From the IMG/VR virus record IMGVR_UViG_2693429582_000012: DNA of 5,985 nucleotides; one strand, given 5' to 3'. Positions 47-5,881 of the stretch are shown here, piece by piece. The notes under the pieces were generated by a model. The model ran no database searches, was not told where the DNA came from, and saw only the letters and a list, made by a program, of their open reading frames with translations. How positions within the stretch are numbered: position 1 is the stretch's first letter; each line of letters opens with the position of its first letter. Source of the stretch: a virus (lineage: Duplodnaviria > Heunggongvirae > Uroviricota > Caudoviricetes). The position numbers and the translations under genes were made by a program.

Positions 47-472
47 TTAGTGCATCACCACAGCATTCCCTGCCGGGCCGCCGCGATTCATCTGGTCATA
101 CAAAACAACCGCTGACGCAACAAAATCATCGACATCCTTCACCAGCCGATCCCTCCGTTCGACGATCTCACGGTAATATTCAGAACTGTGACTGCGCATA
201 CGGGCCACCAGCAAAGGCGGCATCGCCTTTTCGATCGCCGGTAACAGCGCCTGAATTTTTTCAACCGCATCAGGCGTATCCTTCTCCACCCAGCGGAAAA
301 TTTTCTGGGTATTACGGGCCAGGGCTTCCGGATGGCTGTCGTCGTACAGTTCCGGGAACGTCATCCCAAGTTCGAAATAAGTCCGGGCTATTTCAGCTGC
401 AGGCACTTTCTCACCATCAGGATATGCCCAGGCATTCATCGCCATGCGGATGTGTTCATGTTTGATTTTCAT
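47..472 (-). CDS. ydaT: YdaT-like (cII-like) prophage protein, 141 aa
   Basis: Complete ORF beginning MKIKHEHI and ending VVMH, which I recall as characteristic of E. coli Rac YdaT. GGAG lies 7 nt upstream of the ATG (minus 483..480). Its start overlaps the upstream Cro-like gene by 17 nt, indicating an operon. Family assignment is from memory, not a search. Confidence 0.75.
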   Translation of the reverse strand: MKIKHEHIRMAMNAWAYPDGEKVPAAEIARTYFELGMTFPELYDDSHPEALARNTQKIFRWVEKDTPDAVEKIQALLPAIEKAMPPLLVARMRSHSSEYYREIVERRDRLVKDVDDFVASAVVLYDQMNRGGPAGNAVVMH

Positions 473-731
473 GAATCAACTCCGGTGTATTTTGTGTGTT
501 AGCCTTATCTCCAGCAGGCAACCCGTCGGTTGGATTCGGATATAAATCTGGTCGCAATTCATGAGGAGTCACCCCAGTTGCAATATAAATTTGACGAACC
601 CGCTCCCCTGTCGGCACTCGACCATTGTATTCATTTGCCCATTTGTGTATTTGAGACGGCCAAGCCCCTATTGCACGCCCTAGCGGACGAATACCACCAG
701 CAATCTTTATTGCCTTGTCCAATGCTGTCAT
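456..731 (-). CDS. ydaS: Cro-like HTH DNA-binding protein, YdaS family, 91 aa
   Basis: ORF with GGAGG (minus 740..736) 4 nt upstream of ATG 731..729. The translation has a Cro/YdaS-like helix-turn-helix segment (LGRAIGAWPSQIHKW) and the HELRPDLYP motif I recall from YdaS-family proteins. It is divergent from the repressor gene. Confidence 0.8.
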   Translation of the reverse strand: MTALDKAIKIAGGIRPLGRAIGAWPSQIHKWANEYNGRVPTGERVRQIYIATGVTPHELRPDLYPNPTDGLPAGDKANTQNTPELIHENQT

Positions 732-758
732 ACAACCTCCAATTCAATCAGCCACAAC

Positions 759-787
759 ATTGTTCACTTAAAGAGAACATAAGTCAA
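759..787 (-). promoter_or_regulatory. Predicted leftward sigma70 promoter for the cro-like/ydaT-like operon
   Basis: On the minus strand: -35 TTGACT (787..782), 17-nt spacer, -10 AACAAT (764..759). This gives a transcript start about 20 nt upstream of the GGAGG RBS. Prediction from sequence only. Confidence 0.45.
761..779. promoter_or_regulatory. Putative operator: palindrome TGTTC-N9-GAACA (TGTTCACTTAAAGAGAACA)
   Basis: Perfect 5-bp inverted half-sites separated by 9 bp, overlapping the spacer and -10 of the leftward promoter. A near-identical 19-mer recurs at 1297..1315. Confidence 0.5.
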
Positions 788-799
788 CACTACGAGGAA

Positions 800-827
800 T
801 TGTTAGTGTTCACTGAACGGTTATAAT
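800..827 (+). promoter_or_regulatory. Predicted rightward promoter for the repressor gene (PRM-like), probably giving a leaderless mRNA
   Basis: -35 TTGTTA (800..805), 16-nt spacer, perfect -10 TATAAT (822..827). The repressor ATG at 834 is 7 nt after the -10 and has no Shine-Dalgarno, so transcript start and start codon would coincide. Confidence 0.45.
808..818. promoter_or_regulatory. Putative operator variant: palindrome GTTCA-C-TGAAC
   Basis: Perfect 11-bp palindrome sharing the TGTTCA half-site with the 761..779 and 1297..1315 sites, but with different half-site spacing. It sits in the spacer of the predicted repressor promoter. Confidence 0.35.
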
Positions 828-833
828 TGCTAA

Positions 834-1223
834 ATGGACATGAGAAAAAAGCAATACGACACCCCGCTGGCAGAAAGGTTAGATACGATCTCGCAACAGC
901 ATCATTTAAGCGGTTCAGATTTAGCGCGCATCGCTGGTGTAGGACGCTCATCAGTCAACGCCTGGAAAAAAAGAGGGACAATCAGTAAAGATTCCGCAGC
1001 CAAAATTGCAGAAGCGACAAATGTTTCCCTTTCCTGGCTACTGACAGGAAAAGAAGATACAAACAGAGAGGCGCTTGATGATGATGAGAAAGCCCTGCTT
1101 GATGTTTACAGAAACCTGCCACCTGTAGAGCGTAGAAATATGCTGGCAGCTTTTCAAATGCGCCTTCAAAAACTGACCGAATTTTACTCAGAATACGTTG
1201 ACCCAATAACGCGACAAAAATAA
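834..1223 (+). CDS. Prophage repressor, XRE/CI-type HTH (RacR/DicA-like), 129 aa
   Basis: ORF with an N-terminal HTH (LSGSDLARIAGVGRSSVNAWKKRG). The C-terminal stretch LLDVYRNLPPVERRNMLAAFQMRL resembles, from memory, the C-terminal region of E. coli DicA-type short repressors. It is divergent from the cro-like gene and followed by an intrinsic terminator. An alternative start at ATG 840 is possible. Confidence 0.85.
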   Translation: MDMRKKQYDTPLAERLDTISQQHHLSGSDLARIAGVGRSSVNAWKKRGTISKDSAAKIAEATNVSLSWLLTGKEDTNREALDDDEKALLDVYRNLPPVERRNMLAAFQMRLQKLTEFYSEYVDPITRQK

Positions 1224-1244
1224 TTCTTTATTTTACAAAACAAT

Positions 1245-1267
1245 ACCGCCGGAAGGCGGTTTTTTTT
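1245..1267 (+). terminator. Rho-independent terminator after the repressor gene
   Basis: Stem ACCGCC (1245..1250), loop GGAA, GGCGGT (1255..1260), followed directly by a run of 8 T (1260..1267). Confidence 0.75.
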
Positions 1268-1288
1268 GCCTCTTGCGCATTCACAATG

Positions 1289-1317
1289 TTGACATATGTT
1301 CATCTTAAGAGAACAAT
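1289..1317 (+). promoter_or_regulatory. Predicted rightward early promoter (PL-like) with embedded operator
   Basis: -35 TTGACA (1289..1294), 17-nt spacer, -10 AACAAT (1312..1317). This is the same architecture and nearly the same sequence as the leftward promoter at 759..787. Confidence 0.5.
1297..1315. promoter_or_regulatory. Putative operator: palindrome TGTTC-N9-GAACA (TGTTCATCTTAAGAGAACA)
   Basis: Second copy of the 19-bp palindrome, overlapping the spacer and -10 of the predicted early promoter. Confidence 0.5.
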
Positions 1318-1391
1318 ATATCCCATCAAAGCACAACGGTGCGACAGGTCTTAGTTCCGCCCCCCCGGCGTTAAGGGCAAATGAGGTCAAC

Positions 1392-1544
1392 ATGGATACG
1401 CTCAATCTTGGCAACAACGAATCTCTGGTATGTGGCGTGTTCCCCAACCAGGACGGTACGTTCACCGCGATGACGTATACCAAAAGCAAAACGTTTAAAA
1501 CTGAAGCTGGCGCGCGTCGCTGGTTAGCCAGAAACACTGACTGA
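1392..1544 (+). CDS. Small prophage protein, 50 aa (possibly YdaF/DUF1391-like)
   Basis: GAGG (1383..1386) 5 nt upstream of ATG 1392. The longer ORF from 1296 would start inside the predicted promoter and has no RBS, so the internal start is preferred. The YdaF-like assignment is a tentative recollection. Confidence 0.55.
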   Translation: MDTLNLGNNESLVCGVFPNQDGTFTAMTYTKSKTFKTEAGARRWLARNTD

Positions 1545-1555
1545 TGAGGTTGACG

Positions 1556-2194
1556 ATGGAATTTAAAGATTTACCTCCTTCAATCCAGGAGATTGCAGCA
1601 CACACACTTCGTCATCGTCTGAACGAACTTGAATTGGAATCGGTAACGAAAAAAGACACTGATAATATGGCTCGTAATGTGCGCGATGCGTTTACCGGAT
1701 TGTATTTCTGTGCGTCTATAAATAAACACGACTCAGAGAGTGTGGCAAATAAAATTGCAGAAACGACAGCGCAAAACATCAATACGAAACCAACGGAAGA
1801 AGAAATTGATCAGTTTGCTCATGATGCTGGTTTAAAAAACAAGAAAGAAAAATCGCCATATGCGGGGAACATGTTTGTTTATGACAATCTCATCAGAATT
1901 CGTGGCGAAATTCCGGCGGAATACCTGGCAAGAGTCCATCAGGCATTGCTTAAAAATTTGGAAACAGAATTATTTGATGGCAACACTAACGGTTTCTTCA
2001 TGGTATCAGGCCTTGAGAAAGACTGGGATGCAGAAAAACGCTGGAATGTTGCTACATGGTTATTCAGTAACAGAGCCGCTGCACTGGAAGCTTCGGCATG
2101 TATTTGCGGCCTGTTCTTAACAGACCACAAATATAATCTGGATGTGTACAGTTATATTTACGCTGAACACGGTCCACTCTGGATTGACTGGTAA
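1556..2194 (+). CDS. Hypothetical protein, 212 aa (216 aa if started at ATG 1544); unknown function, AT-rich
   Basis: Long ORF with GAGG (1546..1549) 6 nt upstream of ATG 1556. ATG 1544 overlaps the upstream stop (TGATG) as an alternative start. No recognisable catalytic or nucleotide-binding motif. By eye about 40% GC, lower than its neighbours. Confidence 0.75.
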   Translation: MEFKDLPPSIQEIAAHTLRHRLNELELESVTKKDTDNMARNVRDAFTGLYFCASINKHDSESVANKIAETTAQNINTKPTEEEIDQFAHDAGLKNKKEKSPYAGNMFVYDNLIRIRGEIPAEYLARVHQALLKNLETELFDGNTNGFFMVSGLEKDWDAEKRWNVATWLFSNRAAALEASACICGLFLTDHKYNLDVYSYIYAEHGPLWIDW

Positions 2195-2404
2195 TTATAA
2201 GGAAACACCAGCAGGGCCGCGGCGACCAACAGAACGATTAAAATCAATAATGCCATTATAAAGGACATTATTTAATTTATCGTCGAATGCTGATTCTGTG
2301 AGCCTCAACTCTGAATGAGTTTTTAATAACCCTGATTGCCTGAGTTGATTTACCAGGCATTCAATCTGTTTTTCAATAAGCGGATTTCTTTTTTTGTTTG
2401 GCAT
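2195..2404 (-). CDS. Hypothetical protein, 69 aa, convergent with the 216-aa gene
   Basis: GGAGG (minus 2414..2410) 5 nt upstream of ATG 2404..2402, preferred over the upstream ATG at 2416 which has no RBS. AT-rich, no family recognised. Confidence 0.5.
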   Translation of the reverse strand: MPNKKRNPLIEKQIECLVNQLRQSGLLKTHSELRLTESAFDDKLNNVLYNGIIDFNRSVGRRGPAGVSL

Positions 2405-2755
2405 TTTATCCTCCATTGAGGTTCTGGGTTAAAAATGGAGACCAACACGCTGTCACGTGTGGTCGTGCGCCGGACACGGATAAGAATCCGGTACTGACAG
2501 TTTACTGAAAGGATATTTCCCTGAAAAGTCAGGGCATAACGCGAAAGCGTACGGCGAAGCTCTTTCCCTTAGAAGGCTTGTCGTTAGATTTCTTCGAACG
2601 TGCGCTTCCGGTTGTGGCACTCCGCGAAATGGCGCGGCGGTAAGTATGGCGGGGTTATTCCTTCCCCTTGAGGACACCGGGTTGTCAGGTTGACCATACG
2701 CTTAAGTGACAACCCCGCTGCAACGCCCTCTGTTATCAATTTTCTGGTGACGTTT

Positions 2756-2798
2756 GGCGGTATCAGTTTTACTCCGTGGCTGCTCTGCCGCCCTTTTT
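2756..2798 (+). terminator. Possible intrinsic terminator-like element
   Basis: GGCGG (2756..2760) and CAG (2764..2766) pair with CTG (2785..2787) and CCGCC (2788..2792), with a 3-nt bulge and an 18-nt loop, followed by T5 (2794..2798). The stem is imperfect, so this is weak. Confidence 0.3.
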
Positions 2799-2967: not shown

Positions 2968-3156
2968 ATGGAAACGTTATTACCAAACGTTAATACGTCT
3001 GAAGGTTGTTTTGATATTGGTGTTCTGCTCAGTAACCGGGAGTTTACTGAAGATGCCATTAATATGAGAAAATATGAGCCTTATCTGCTCAATGATAATT
3101 CCATACTTTCCCGAATTGCTCTTCTTGAACTTGGTATTTTCGGAGAACGTCAATGA
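2968..3156 (+). CDS. Small hypothetical protein, 62 aa
   Basis: GAGGA (2956..2960) 7 nt upstream of ATG 2968. The longer frame from GTG 2863 has no RBS and would run through the inverted-repeat region. Confidence 0.55.
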   Translation: METLLPNVNTSEGCFDIGVLLSNREFTEDAINMRKYEPYLLNDNSILSRIALLELGIFGERQ

Positions 3157-3344
3157 CTTCAGCATTTGCACTGATGATGACGGTTTTTCTTATAACGGGT
3201 GAATCACAGAATGTGATTACCGGAATTTATGCCAGTAAAGAATCCTGCCTCCAGGCAAGAGACGAGCAAAAAATTTCTGGTGAATGCCTCCCGGTAAAAA
3301 AAAAAGTATCGCTGTACCTGAATAACGAAACACCGGCTGGATAA
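3153..3344 (+). CDS. Small hypothetical protein, 63 aa, with N-terminal hydrophobic segment
   Basis: ATG 3153 overlaps the upstream stop (ATGA), with GGAG (3142..3145) 7 nt upstream. The N-terminus MTSAFALMMTVFLITG is hydrophobic, suggesting a signal or membrane anchor; two Cys residues follow. Confidence 0.55.
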   Translation: MTSAFALMMTVFLITGESQNVITGIYASKESCLQARDEQKISGECLPVKKKVSLYLNNETPAG

Positions 3345-3436: not shown

Positions 3437-5881
3437 ATGAGCACTGATAAAGAAGAATTTGCGCTATATTGCGAAGCAAAAAATGACAAAGTCAGAAAAC
3501 GTCTGGGAATTAAAGGTGGTTTTTACTGGACTACAGCAAAAAAATTATCTGTTGCCATCTCCCGCTGCATTACCGCAATGGATGACAACGATTATGATGA
3601 AGACGACTTTAAAAAACCCGTTCGCGTCCATTTACCCGTTGTGAATGACCTTCCACCTGAAGGCGTGTTTGATACCGAATTCTGCAACCGATACGAAAAA
3701 GGCGGGGAAGATGGCATTACAATGGTATTTATCGCGCCCTCTCCCTCCGTGCAGGAGAAACCAGCCAGTACTGACAATACCAACGTCAACAGCGAAGACA
3801 TGACGGAGATTGAGGAGAATATGCTCCTGCCGGTTTCTGGTCAGGAGCTGCCCATTCGCTGGCTTGCGCAACACGGCAGCGAAAAACCAGTAACGCACGT
3901 TGCACGGGAAGAACTTCAGGCATTACATATAGCACGGGCGGAAGAACTGCCTGCTGTTACTGCCCTGGCCATTTCTCACAAAACAAAGCTGCTCGACCCG
4001 CTGGAGATTCGCGACCTTCACAAACTGGTACGCGACACAGACAAAGTTTTCCCTAATCCCGTTAATTCCAGTCTGGGGTTAATGACTGCTTTTTTCGAAG
4101 CATACCTGGACGCTGACTATACCGATCGAGGTCTGCTGACAAAAGAGTGGATGAAAGGAAATCGTGTTTTACGCATCAGCCGCACGCCATCCGGCGCTAA
4201 TGCTGGCGGAGGAATTCTTACCGATCGCGGTGAAGGTTTTGTCCACGATAATGCGTCAGTGGAACGTGACGTTGCCGCTGGCGTTCTGGCCCGTTCAATG
4301 GACATCGATATTTACAATCCACATCCGGCACACGCCAAACGCATTGAAGAAATCGTTTCAGAGAATAAGCCGCCCTTTTCTGTTTTTCGTGACAAATTCA
4401 TCGCCATGCCTGGTCACCTGGATTATTCCCGCGCGATAGTGGTTGCGTCCGTGAAAGAAGCACCAATTGGTATCGAGGCTACTCCCCACCGTGTTACCGA
4501 ATATCTGAACAAAGTACTGACCGAAACCGACCATGCCAACCCTGATCCAGAAATCGTGGATATTGCCTGCGGTCGCTCCTCTGCTCCAATGCCGCAGCGT
4601 GTAACAAAAGAAGGAAAACAGGATGATGAAGAAAAACCGCAGCCATCTGGCGCAATGGCAGATGAACAGGCAACGACTGAAGCAGTGGAACCGGATACAA
4701 CTGAACATAATCAGGACACGCAGTCGATGGATGCTCAGCCACAGATAAATTCTGTTGATGCGAAATATCAGAAACTGCGGGCAGAACTCCATGAAGCCCG
4801 GAAAAACATTCCGCCCCAAAATCCTGTCGATGCAGACAAATTACTGGCTGCCTCTCGCGGAGAATTTGTTGAAGGGATTAGCGACCCGAATGATCCGAAA
4901 TGGATTAAGGGGATCCAGACCCGCGATTCTGTGTACCAGAATCAGCCAGAAACGGAACAGAACGACCAGAAAGCGGAACAGAACAGCCCAAATACGCAAC
5001 AAAACGAGCCAGAAACGAAACAACCTGAACCAGTAGTGCAACAGGAACCGGAAAAGATCTGCACCGCCTGCGGTCAGAGGAGTGGCGGCAACTGCCCTGA
5101 TTGTGGCGCGGTGATGGGCGACGCAACATACCAGGAAACATTCGATGACAAGAACCTGGTTGAAGTTCAGGAAGACGATTCGGAGAAAATGGAAGGCGCT
5201 GAACATCCACACAAGGAGAATGCTGGCAGCGCTCAGGACCACGCCAGCGATAGTGAAACTGGCGAGACAGCAGATCCCTTAATTACGGTGAACGGTCATC
5301 GCATTATCACATCCACCCGCAGGTTGTGGCACCATCTGATGATTGACCTTGAAACAATGGGCAAAAATCCTGACGCACCAATAGCCTCAATAGGCGCTGT
5401 ATTTTTCGATCCACAAACCGGAGAGCAGGGGCCTGAATTCAGCAAAATAATTGATATGGGTACATGTGGCGGCACTGTAGACATAAGCACCATCGAATGG
5501 TGGCTTCAACGCTCTGGCGAAGCCCGTGCCGCCATTTTAGCTGATCGAATACCGCTTGATGATGCGCTTTTACAATTACGGGAATTTATAGACGAAAACT
5601 CCGGTGAATTTTTTGTCCAGGTCTGGGGAAATGGAGCCAACTTCGACAACACGATTTTGCGCCGTTCATACGAACGGCAGGGGATCCCCTGCCCGTGGCG
5701 TTGCTACAACGATCGCGATGTACGCACAATCGTTGAGCTGGGGAAAGCCATAGACTTCGATGCCAGAACTGCTATCCCATTCGAAGGTGAGCGCCATAAT
5801 GCACTTGATGACGCCCGTTACCAGGCAAAATACGTTTCAGTTATCTGGCAAAAACTGATCCCGAATCAGGCTGATTTTTAA
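3437..5881 (+). CDS. recE: RecE-like recombination exonuclease, 814 aa: RecE-type N-terminal region fused to a C-terminal DEDDh 3'-5' exonuclease domain
   Basis: GAGG 7 nt upstream of ATG 3437. Long stretches (for example [42 protein letters not shown] and [17 protein letters not shown]) match my recollection of E. coli Rac RecE (exonuclease VIII) N-terminal sequence. The last ~190 aa instead carry DnaQ-like motifs: LMIDLETMG (D637, E639), NFDNTIL (D737), [13 protein letters not shown] (H787, D792). Confidence 0.9.

Follow-up and report, generated by a model that had tools for sequence, protein, structure and literature searches.

The window analyzed here, a stretch of 5,985 nucleotides (IMG/VR virus record IMGVR_UViG_2693429582_000012), is located in a lambdoid prophage adjoining ompW in Escherichia coli O157:H7. 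A cII-like and a cro-like gene, ydaT and ydaS, are read leftward from PR. The repressor gene is read rightward from PRM and is followed by a terminator, PL, and the early left operon. PR and PRM stand back to back in the short intergenic gap between the divergent ydaS and repressor genes. On the prophage map, replication genes lie past ydaT, and xis-int lies past an exonuclease gene. The features are collected in Table 1.

Table 1. Genes and control elements of the immunity region and its flanks (positions are those of the window)
Feature	Position	Strand	Basis or remark
ydaT-like gene, CII functional analogue	47..472	-	Pfam YdaT_toxin, E 7.8e-10
ydaS, cro-like, first leftward-operon gene	456..731	-	Pfam YdaS_toxin (PF15943/PF06254 pair with YdaT), E 7.1e-10
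YdaT operator OM-like inverted repeat	462..479		TTGATT-N6-AATCAA; ydaS/ydaT junction; exact match, 0.06 expected by chance
Exchangeable immunity cassette	484..1344		ydaS, PR/OR, PRM/ORM, repressor, terminator, PL/OL
PR-like promoter for ydaS-ydaT	759..787	-	TTGACT, 17 nt, AACAAT; promoter scan; invariant in 5 E. coli variants
OR, predicted 19-bp operator	761..779		TGTTCAC-TTAAA-GAGAACA; over PR spacer and first 4 nt of -10
PRM-like promoter of repressor gene	800..827	+	TTGTTA, 16 nt, TATAAT; promoter scan
ORM, predicted weak third operator	807..825		TGTTCAC-TGAAC-GGTTATA, 7-5-7 frame; within PRM spacer and -10
Repressor gene, 129 aa	834..1223	+	HTH domain and C-terminal helical hairpin, without peptidase domain
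Intrinsic terminator	1245..1268	+	Terminator scan; hairpin 1245-1260, then T-run; separates repressor gene from PL
Possible auxiliary half-site	1278..1284		CATTCAC; just upstream of PL -35; tentative, by-eye reading without statistics
PL-like promoter	1289..1317	+	TTGACA, 17 nt, AACAAT; promoter scan; equivalent of dicBp and PL933P
OL, predicted 19-bp operator	1297..1315		TGTTCAT-CTTAA-GAGAACA; over PL spacer and first 4 nt of -10
Conserved 5' leader of predicted PL transcript	1325..1391	+	Two small hairpins
ydfA-like gene (DUF1391), first PL-operon gene	1392..1544	+	Pfam DUF1391, E 3.6e-30
DicF small RNA, PL-operon cargo	2742..2793	+	Rfam RF00039, 75 bits versus gathering score 48
dicB cell-division inhibitor, PL-operon cargo	2968..3156	+	Pfam DicB, E 6.4e-37; RefSeq annotation dicB

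The leftward operon begins with ydaS, for which there is a GGAGG Shine-Dalgarno sequence (736-740, minus strand). Over ydaT, the DNA shares 93% identity with L002, a locus of the CP-933P (paaR2) type. Downstream of the cro-like gene lies a CII-type activator gene of the YdaT family with a site of its own, and both the motif and the position of this OM-like repeat match the YdaT footprint in CP-933P (PMC9986795). To the right, the predicted promoter and operator at 1289-1317 are followed on the same strand by ydfA, DicF, and dicB. The location of PL matches that of dicBp, upstream of ydfA in the K-12 Qin prophage. As the predicted promoter of ydfA-DicF-dicB, it would correspond to dicBp in Qin and to PL933P in CP-933P.

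The profile matches of the putative repressor were to HTH families only, namely, Pfam Phage_CI_repr (PF07022, E 1.8e-12) and HTH_3 (PF01381). We found no S24 peptidase or RecA-stimulated autocleavage domain in its 129 residues, and an AlphaFold model (mean pLDDT 80) consists of an HTH domain and a two-helix C terminus. A fold search with this model returned SinR, the 434 repressor, and P22 c2, which are generic Xre/SinR/434/P22 matches, and no specific relative. A PDB sequence search gave weak HTH matches only (186 CI, E 0.004, and the 434 repressor). In BLASTP, the repressor and DicA were 26% identical over 110 residues (E 5e-7), and the alignment takes in the C-terminal segment as well as the HTH. 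No similarity to PaaR2 was detected, and BLASTP produced no alignment.

A preliminary description of this DNA had proposed that one promoter-operator module is duplicated on the two sides of the repressor gene, and this was borne out. The window has two exact copies of TGTTC-N9-GAACA and no third (761-779 and 1297-1315, zero mismatches each), in identical register in both promoters. When up to one mismatch was allowed, 0.30 sites were expected, and 7 of 200 shuffled sequences reached two. The two modules (759-789 and 1287-1317) form a 31-nt inverted repeat that is 84% complementary. Both were among the three promoters returned by our promoter scan, which found 5 promoter-like sites in the region versus 4.7 in shuffled sequence and therefore no excess; their AACAAT -10 elements are weak matches. 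OR half-sites are invariant in relatives, and the center varies. In the nine loci of this specificity, the same holds for all three sites, with fixed 7-mers and variable 5-nt centers.

We also searched 18 kb of prophage and flanks (L001) for extra operator copies, allowing two mismatches. There were 10 matches versus 9.4 expected, so there are no credible copies beyond the known sites. Tripartite O1-O3 operators were not found. Each lytic promoter has one full site, PRM has a weak one, and a lone half-site may precede the PL -35. This possible half-site, read by eye, is [AT]TCAC in TGTTCAC-type loci and [AT]TAGC in TGTTAGC-type loci. L028 and L030 are examples of loci with TGTTAGC operators.

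The repressor ATG lies 6 nt past the PRM -10, so the repressor mRNA is probably leaderless. A gap of 6 to 7 nt is found in nearly all homologous loci, and the paaR2 mRNA has been reported to be leaderless (PMC8630535). PRM also contains the third site, which the preliminary description had presented as a differently spaced palindrome at 808-818. The palindrome, GTTCACTGAAC, is present and is 11 bp long, but its right arm is not conserved. It is not kept in Lelliottia, Salmonella, and two other relatives that share the operator type, whereas TGTTCAC-N5-GGTTATA (807-825) is. Across the nine loci of this operator type, both 7-mers are invariant around the centers TGAAC, TGCGA, TGAGA, TGAGT, and TACGA, and the distance from ORM to OR is constant at 46 bp. 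The third site is therefore better read, from its sequence, as a weak operator in the 19-bp frame (807-825). If it were instead a separate 11-bp palindrome with its own spacing, it might be bound in another mode or by another protein, and it is a perfect palindrome in all five E. coli variants. However, L007 (TGCGA), L032 (TGAGA), L036 (TGAGT), and L037 (TACGA) have lost the right arm, whereas TGTTCAC and GGTTATA stay fixed 46 bp from OR. Moreover, loci of other specificities have, at the equivalent PRM position, a 19-bp site of their respective operator type, such as TGTTAGC-CGGTG-GCTTATA in L018. We consider a separate palindrome unlikely.

To see how operator and repressor vary together, we compared some two dozen loci encoding homologues of the repressor (34 to 81% identity), including those of Lelliottia, Raoultella, Erwinia, Serratia, Chimaeribacter, Cronobacter, Enterobacter, Salmonella, and others. 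Operators vary together with repressors, each repressor variant having its own palindrome, and most loci carry that palindrome twice, once in the divergent promoter and once in the second promoter, past the terminator. An unanchored 19-nt comparison of the upstream and downstream regions was uninformative, because background matches of 13 to 15 out of 19 swamp the signal. We replaced it with a comparison aligned on the -35 element and a permutation test on 19 loci. Cognate PR/PL pairs agree at 13.2 of 23 positions and noncognate pairs at 9.2 of 23, and none of 100,000 permutations reached the observed sum, a result that overstates independence because the loci are phylogenetically related. Six loci (L002, L009, L016, L027, L028, and L033) failed the anchored test, either because the register was shifted or because the PL operator was degenerate. 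Residue 45, in the recognition helix of the repressor, also tracks the half-site, being K/R versus Y/F/H for CAC versus AGC, and is K in the repressor studied here. The stem of the terminator is conserved in relatives, and its loop is variable.

A swap of the whole region points the same way. L002 shares this prophage backbone but is of the paaR2 immunity type, and its homology to the window ends at 483 and restarts at 1345. The second promoter, with OL, is within the swapped cassette. The region is a lambda-style on/off switch in which a short repressor gene lies between two promoters sharing one operator. The joint explanation that we favor, with a probability of roughly 85%, is that a DicA-family repressor acting on the shared operators would silence both early operons in a lambda layout. 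The preliminary description had likewise predicted that a single repressor shuts off both operons. Covariation, the cassette, half-site conservation, and the sister systems argue for one repressor acting through the same operator at both promoters, but "single" appears to be incomplete. The HTH region of YdaS, like the repressor, changes with operator type, so this Cro-like protein probably binds the same operators, and covariation cannot separate the two proteins because both change.

Could YdaS be the only protein that recognizes TGTTC-N9-GAACA, with the 129-residue protein binding another sequence or not being the maintenance repressor? The covariation of its HTH region would fit, as would the repression of PR, PRM, and PL by YdaS in CP-933P (PMC8630535). 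However, a CI-like protein binds the shared operators in both characterized sister systems (shown by footprinting for PaaR2, and at Oc for DicA), and here it is repressor residue 45 that follows the change from CAC to AGC. The homologue DicA also binds TGTTAG-type half-sites, which resemble half-sites in loci of this repressor family. Exclusive recognition by YdaS is therefore very improbable. We give even less credence to the likeness of the two modules being a promoter constraint or a meaningless duplication, with the rightward operon expressed constitutively or by read-through from PRM. The shared -35 and -10 hexamers do account for part of the similarity, and the promoter scan gave no enrichment over shuffled sequence. 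However, most of the similarity is in the spacer, which changes jointly at both promoters across loci. A terminator that is strong and conserved stands between the repressor gene and PL, and the products of the operon include DicB and DicF, whose derepression is toxic in Qin (PMC10448788).

Two E. coli systems are closest to this switch. In Qin, dicBp is under 22-fold repression by DicA, whose binding site is the inverted repeat Oc, TTGTTAGTCATAACTAACAA (PMC10448788, PMC3441716). Both regions have a leftward cro-like gene, and a rightward short repressor gene, terminator, promoter, and ydfA ... dicF-dicB-ydfD-ydfE. The two repressors are homologous, both match PF07022 and HTH_3, and both lack an autocleavage domain. 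DNA identity to Qin is 87% over the leader and ydfA and 93% over the DicF-dicB region. However, there is no DNA homology to Qin across 484-1344, and the specificity is not that of Qin, because the operator is TGTTCAC-N5-GNGAACA here and TGTTAG-N6-CTAACA (Oc) there. The Cro-like partner here is of the YdaS family and is followed by YdaT, whereas DicC is of the P22_Cro family. Finally, the repressor promoter has a consensus TATAAT, whereas dicA has been reported to lack a recognizable promoter and to need activation by DicA (PMC3441716).

In CP-933P, PaaR2 and YdaS repress PR933P and PL933P approximately 100-fold, and the two promoters have identical -35 and -10 elements and shared operators (PMC8630535). 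The prophage backbone on both sides of the cassette is 93 to 98% identical to that of CP-933P. Both systems have YdaS/YdaT partners with a YdaT OM site, a PL past the repressor operon with the hexamers and operators of PR, and an apparently leaderless repressor mRNA. They differ in the repressor, which has no detectable similarity to PaaR2, itself without a match to any Pfam family. The toxin-antitoxin genes paaA2-parE2 lie downstream of the repressor gene in CP-933P, and no such genes lie between repressor and PL here. The operators of the two systems are also unrelated. Those of CP-933P are GTTTAGTAA-type repeats, of which each region has three or four, whereas here we predict one strong site per lytic promoter and one weak site. 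The Rac prophage offers a further likeness, with published descriptions placing the repressor gene racR divergent from a ydaS-ydaT operon that is toxic on derepression (PMC5700373, PMC5700377), the same orientation as here. This immunity region represents a specificity variant of the DicA (Qin) and PaaR2 (CP-933P) switches that had not been studied before.

The preliminary description had treated the shared direction of the repressor gene and the rightward operon as a departure from lambda. It is not one, because lambda cI is also codirectional with the PL operon. Further likenesses to lambda are the divergent PR and PRM, a PL operon reached past a terminator, one operator type at PR and PL, a CII analogue with its own site, and a probably leaderless repressor mRNA. 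However, at 129 residues, the repressor here lacks the S24/RecA-cleavable domain, the operators are not tripartite, and the first PL gene is ydfA rather than N. In addition, a 20-bp gap separates OR from the PRM -35, so OR would be too far away for OR2-type activation, unlike in lambda. The lambda paradigm gains no new concept from this switch.

From this anatomy we infer the following mechanism. A DicA-family repressor with an Xre/434-type HTH and a C-terminal helical hairpin would be made from a probably leaderless mRNA beginning at the ATG at 834, and its dimers would bind the 19-bp operators TGTTCAY-N5-GNGAACA. OR and OL span the spacer and the first four -10 bases of promoters with consensus -35 elements, so bound repressor would exclude RNA polymerase. 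Occupancy of OR would silence ydaS-ydaT and the replication genes, and occupancy of OL would silence ydfA-DicF-dicB-ydfD-exonuclease. At 807-825, the left half-site is good, the right half-site is degenerate and merges into TATAAT, and the center is not A/T rich. This would be a low-affinity site that serves negative autoregulation, shutoff of repressor synthesis by YdaS, or both. The terminator would stop transcripts from PRM before they run into the dicBF operon, which is toxic. Because there is no autocleavage domain, induction would probably proceed through an antirepressor or by stochastic switching, as in Qin.

Two additions to this scheme are more tentative. If each lytic promoter has a single strong operator, cooperativity and bistability may come from oligomerization through the conserved C-terminal hairpin and an OR-OL loop around the repressor gene. 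OR and OL are 535 to 539 bp apart (50.95 to 51.33 turns) in 9 of 9 loci of this operator type, a phasing that is not an independent test of looping, because homology links these loci and their genes are of equal length. The PL leader, in turn, could be an undescribed cis-acting RNA, for example, a signal for antitermination or processing that acts on the dicBF operon. It is strongly conserved, also in loci with other immunity types, and RNAalifold found compensatory changes in three of its eight pairs. An Rfam search with it matched no family, and by eye it did not resemble HK022 putL (AF069308). The combination of a minimal lambdoid switch with OR-OL looping and a cis-acting leader element is unlikely.

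The immunity type is present in 84 of 5,426 complete E. coli genomes, mostly of O157:H7 and other Shiga toxin-producing strains, and FRIK944 and Balcarce_24.2 are among its carriers. Sakai and EDL933 were not named among the best 60 of the 84 matches, so this regulator and its operators have probably never been examined. A literature search on regulators of the O157 dicF copies found no work on this immunity type, and in the deposited phage genomes searched, only flanking fragments were matched.

Published accounts of K-12 describe DicF and DicB as altering cell division, metabolism, and phage sensitivity (PMC5069750, PMC6832061), and O157:H7 produces four DicF orthologues under microaerobic conditions (PMC10448788). 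The switch is predicted to gate both DicF and DicB. DicF also affects virulence gene expression in enterohemorrhagic E. coli. For the wider family of prophage repressors, the operator set TGTTCAY-N5-GNGAACA and the correlation between residue 45 and the half-site provide a testable specificity code.

A pattern search of the window for TGTTC-N9-GAACA found exactly two copies, both without mismatches. One (OR) lies in PR, the leftward promoter to ydaS, and the other (OL) lies in PL, the rightward promoter after the repressor gene (see table). With one mismatch or fewer allowed, 0.30 matches were expected, and two or more were reached in 7 of 200 shuffled sequences. A repeat finder also returned 759-789 and 1287-1317 as a 31-nt inverted repeat, 84% complementary, spanning both promoter modules, and a consensus promoter scan recovered both promoters. 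Therefore, the repeated operator noticed in the preliminary description is real. Overall, the scan showed no enrichment relative to shuffled sequence (5 sites versus 4.7), so the argument rests on the shared register of the two modules and on comparative data rather than on the hexamers.

Features of the window and their coordinates
Feature	Position	Strand	Remarks
YdaT family	47-472	-	
YdaT motif	462-479		TTGATT-N6-AATCAA, exact
YdaS family	456-731	-	Cro-like
PR	787..759	-	TTGACT-17-AACAAT (promoter scan)
OR	761-779		
PRM	800..827	+	TTGTTA-16-TATAAT (promoter scan)
Third operator (predicted)	807-825		
Repressor	834-1223	+	129-aa HTH protein; PF07022 Phage_CI_repr, HTH_3
Terminator	1245-1260	+	then T-run (same scan)
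Half-site-like element	1278-1284		5' of PL -35
PL	1289..1317	+	TTGACA-17-AACAAT (promoter scan)
OL	1297-1315		
DUF1391/ydfA	1392-1544	+	
212-aa ORF	1556-2194		
73-aa ORF	2195-2416		opposite strand
DicF RNA	2742-2793	+	Rfam, 75 bits
dicB	2968-3156	+	
DUF1482/ydfD	3153-3344	+	lysis-protein homologue
Exonuclease	3437-5881	+	814 aa

The window is 99.5% identical to an Escherichia coli O157:H7 lambdoid prophage adjoining ompW, which has replication genes past ydaT and xis-int past the exonuclease gene. Between ydfA and DicF-dicB are a 212-aa ORF without a Pfam match and a 73-aa ORF, where K-12 has ydfB and ydfC. The ydfD gene is intact in the window; the copy in NZ_CP076245 (O157:H7, 99.5% identical; 9153-9343 of L001, the prophage with its flanks) is annotated as frameshifted. 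The 814-aa protein joins an N-terminal Exonuc_VIII-family segment to a C-terminal Rv2179c-like 3'-5' exoribonuclease domain, and what K-12 retains of its gene is the truncated ydfE.

Three kinds of comparison support placing PL within the switch. L002 is a locus of the paaR2-paaA2-parE2 immunity type on the window's own prophage backbone. Homology between the two ends at 483 and restarts at 1345, so the exchangeable immunity cassette (484-1344) contains ydaS, PR/PRM, the repressor gene, the terminator, and PL/OL. L002 has a different repeat (GTTTAGT/TTTAAT-ATTAAA type) at both places, its intergenic region and the promoter preceding ydfA. We also compared loci from many Enterobacterales, with repressor homologues 34 to 81% identical. 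Nearly every one had the same architecture, and in most a locus-specific palindrome was present at both the divergent promoter and the post-terminator promoter. Examples are TTAGCC-N3-AGCTCAA (L008), TGTTAGC-N5-GCTCACA (L018), TAAACA-N4-TGTTTA (L014), TAGTAAA..TTTACTA (L010), and TTAGC-N5-GGCTCAAT (L034); L035 has TGTTGAT-N5-GTCAACA at PR and GGTTGCC-N5-ATCAACA at PL. When 23 nt of spacer plus -10 were anchored on the -35, cognate PR/PL pairs shared 13.2 positions and noncognate pairs shared 9.2. The observed sum was reached by 0 of 100,000 permutations, a test in which the loci are akin to one another and six fail through register shifts or degenerate PL sites. In all nine loci of the window's operator type (five E. 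coli variants, Lelliottia, Salmonella, and two metagenome or assembly contigs), the three sites each keep their 7-mers and vary in their 5-nt centers. Together, cassette, covariation, and fixed half-sites argue for the earlier proposal that the second promoter is under the same switch as the cro-like promoter.

One Salmonella contig (L033; repressor homologue 64% identical) may have a variant architecture. No PL-like promoter was seen within about 260 to 420 nt past its repressor gene, and the next gene begins about 365 nt downstream. It also has an unusually long Cro-like gene (137 aa called; longest ORF, about 150 aa).

The preliminary description predicted a single repressor closing both operons. 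The operator does covary with the repressor; however, a change in operator type is accompanied by a change in the HTHs of both the repressor and YdaS, so these data cannot tell which protein binds. Probably both do. Repressor residue 45 (966-968) is K/R in TGTTCAC-type loci and Y/F/H in TGTTAGC-type loci, which marks this recognition-helix position as a candidate determinant of specificity. In the structure model (mean pLDDT, 80), five helices make up the HTH domain and a helical hairpin forms the C terminus, with SinR, 434 repressor, and P22 c2 as the closest folds; a domain search found no peptidase domain. The ATG at 834 (840 is the RefSeq start in most genomes) lies 6 nt past TATAAT (822-827) without a Shine-Dalgarno sequence, and a 6- to 7-nt gap recurs in nearly all homologous loci. 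This suggests that the repressor mRNA is probably leaderless, like those of lambda cI and paaR2.

A third, differently spaced palindrome had been described at 808-818. This 11-bp palindrome exists in E. coli, but its right arm is replaced in four non-E. coli loci (center, TGCGA, TGAGA, TGAGT, or TACGA). TGTTCAC and GGTTATA are invariant there in the nine loci, at a constant 46 bp from OR, and other specificities have their own-type 19-bp site at this position of the repressor promoter (e.g., TGTTAGC-CGGTG-GCTTATA in L018). Our reading is therefore that the third predicted operator occupies 807-825 and shares the 7-5-7 frame of OR and OL. It has a degenerate right half, fused to TATAAT, and a center that is not rich in A/T. 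Analogy to lambda OR3, and to YdaS and PaaR2 at PRM933P, suggests that it would be a weak site. A lone half-site-like element just 5' of the PL -35 has equivalents in L018, L028, L030, and L038. By eye, it varies with operator type ([AT]TCAC in TGTTCAC loci, [AT]TAGC in TGTTAGC loci), and it could serve as an auxiliary OL2 half-site.

Loci of different immunity types and with different first genes share a conserved sequence in the first ~60 nt of the PL transcript (CATCAAAGCACAACGGTGCGACAGG ... GTTCCGC-N-CCGGCGTTAAGGG). Strong conservation of 1325-1391 extends to the sequence 3' of PL in L007, L008, L009, L027, L028, L030, L034, and L035. The leader folds into two small hairpins with a few compensatory changes. 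An Rfam search gave no family for it, and no likeness to HK022 putL was seen; it may act as a nut/put-like or processing element.

Lambda has cI-rexA-rexB and the PL-N operon running leftward alike, and its PL lies past the end of the cI operon. The window has this layout, mirrored. Therefore, the codirectionality of repressor gene and rightward operon was wrongly taken as a departure from lambda. The differences are that the repressor is short and noncleavable, the operators are not tripartite, an OR2-type contact with PRM is absent (20 bp separate OR from the PRM -35), and the PL cargo is ydfA-dicF-dicB.

Related switches are known. In K-12 Qin, repression by DicA is 22-fold at dicBp and extends to dicC, and the region has been described as lambda-like and bistable, with operators at both promoters and Rem as antirepressor (PMC10448788). 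The DicA target Oc is a 20-nt inverted repeat, TTGTTAGTCATAACTAACAA (PMC3441716). DicA is a distant homologue of the repressor (26% identity; E = 5e-7; C-terminal segment included). Judged by position, PL is the equivalent of dicBp, because dicBp occupies the same place 5' of ydfA and PL precedes ydfA-DicF-dicB. In CP-933P, PaaR2 and YdaS each footprint the paaR2/ydaS intergenic region, and each represses PL933P ~100-fold; PL933P has the -35/-10 of PR933P and common operators, and PaaR2 is made from a leaderless mRNA and assembles into octamers (PMC8630535). Sequence similarity between the repressor and PaaR2 was undetectable. The motif footprinted in CP-933P for YdaT, the CII analogue (PMC9986795), has an exact copy spanning the stop of ydaS and the start of ydaT, which implies that the switch also has a PRE-like arm.

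Among 5,426 complete E. coli genomes, 84 carry the immunity type; most of these are O157:H7 or other Shiga toxin-producing strains. It was not found in the deposited phage genomes searched, and a literature search found no work on it. Confidence in the predicted mechanism is good, and this immunity type is a new specificity within a well-known kind of switch.
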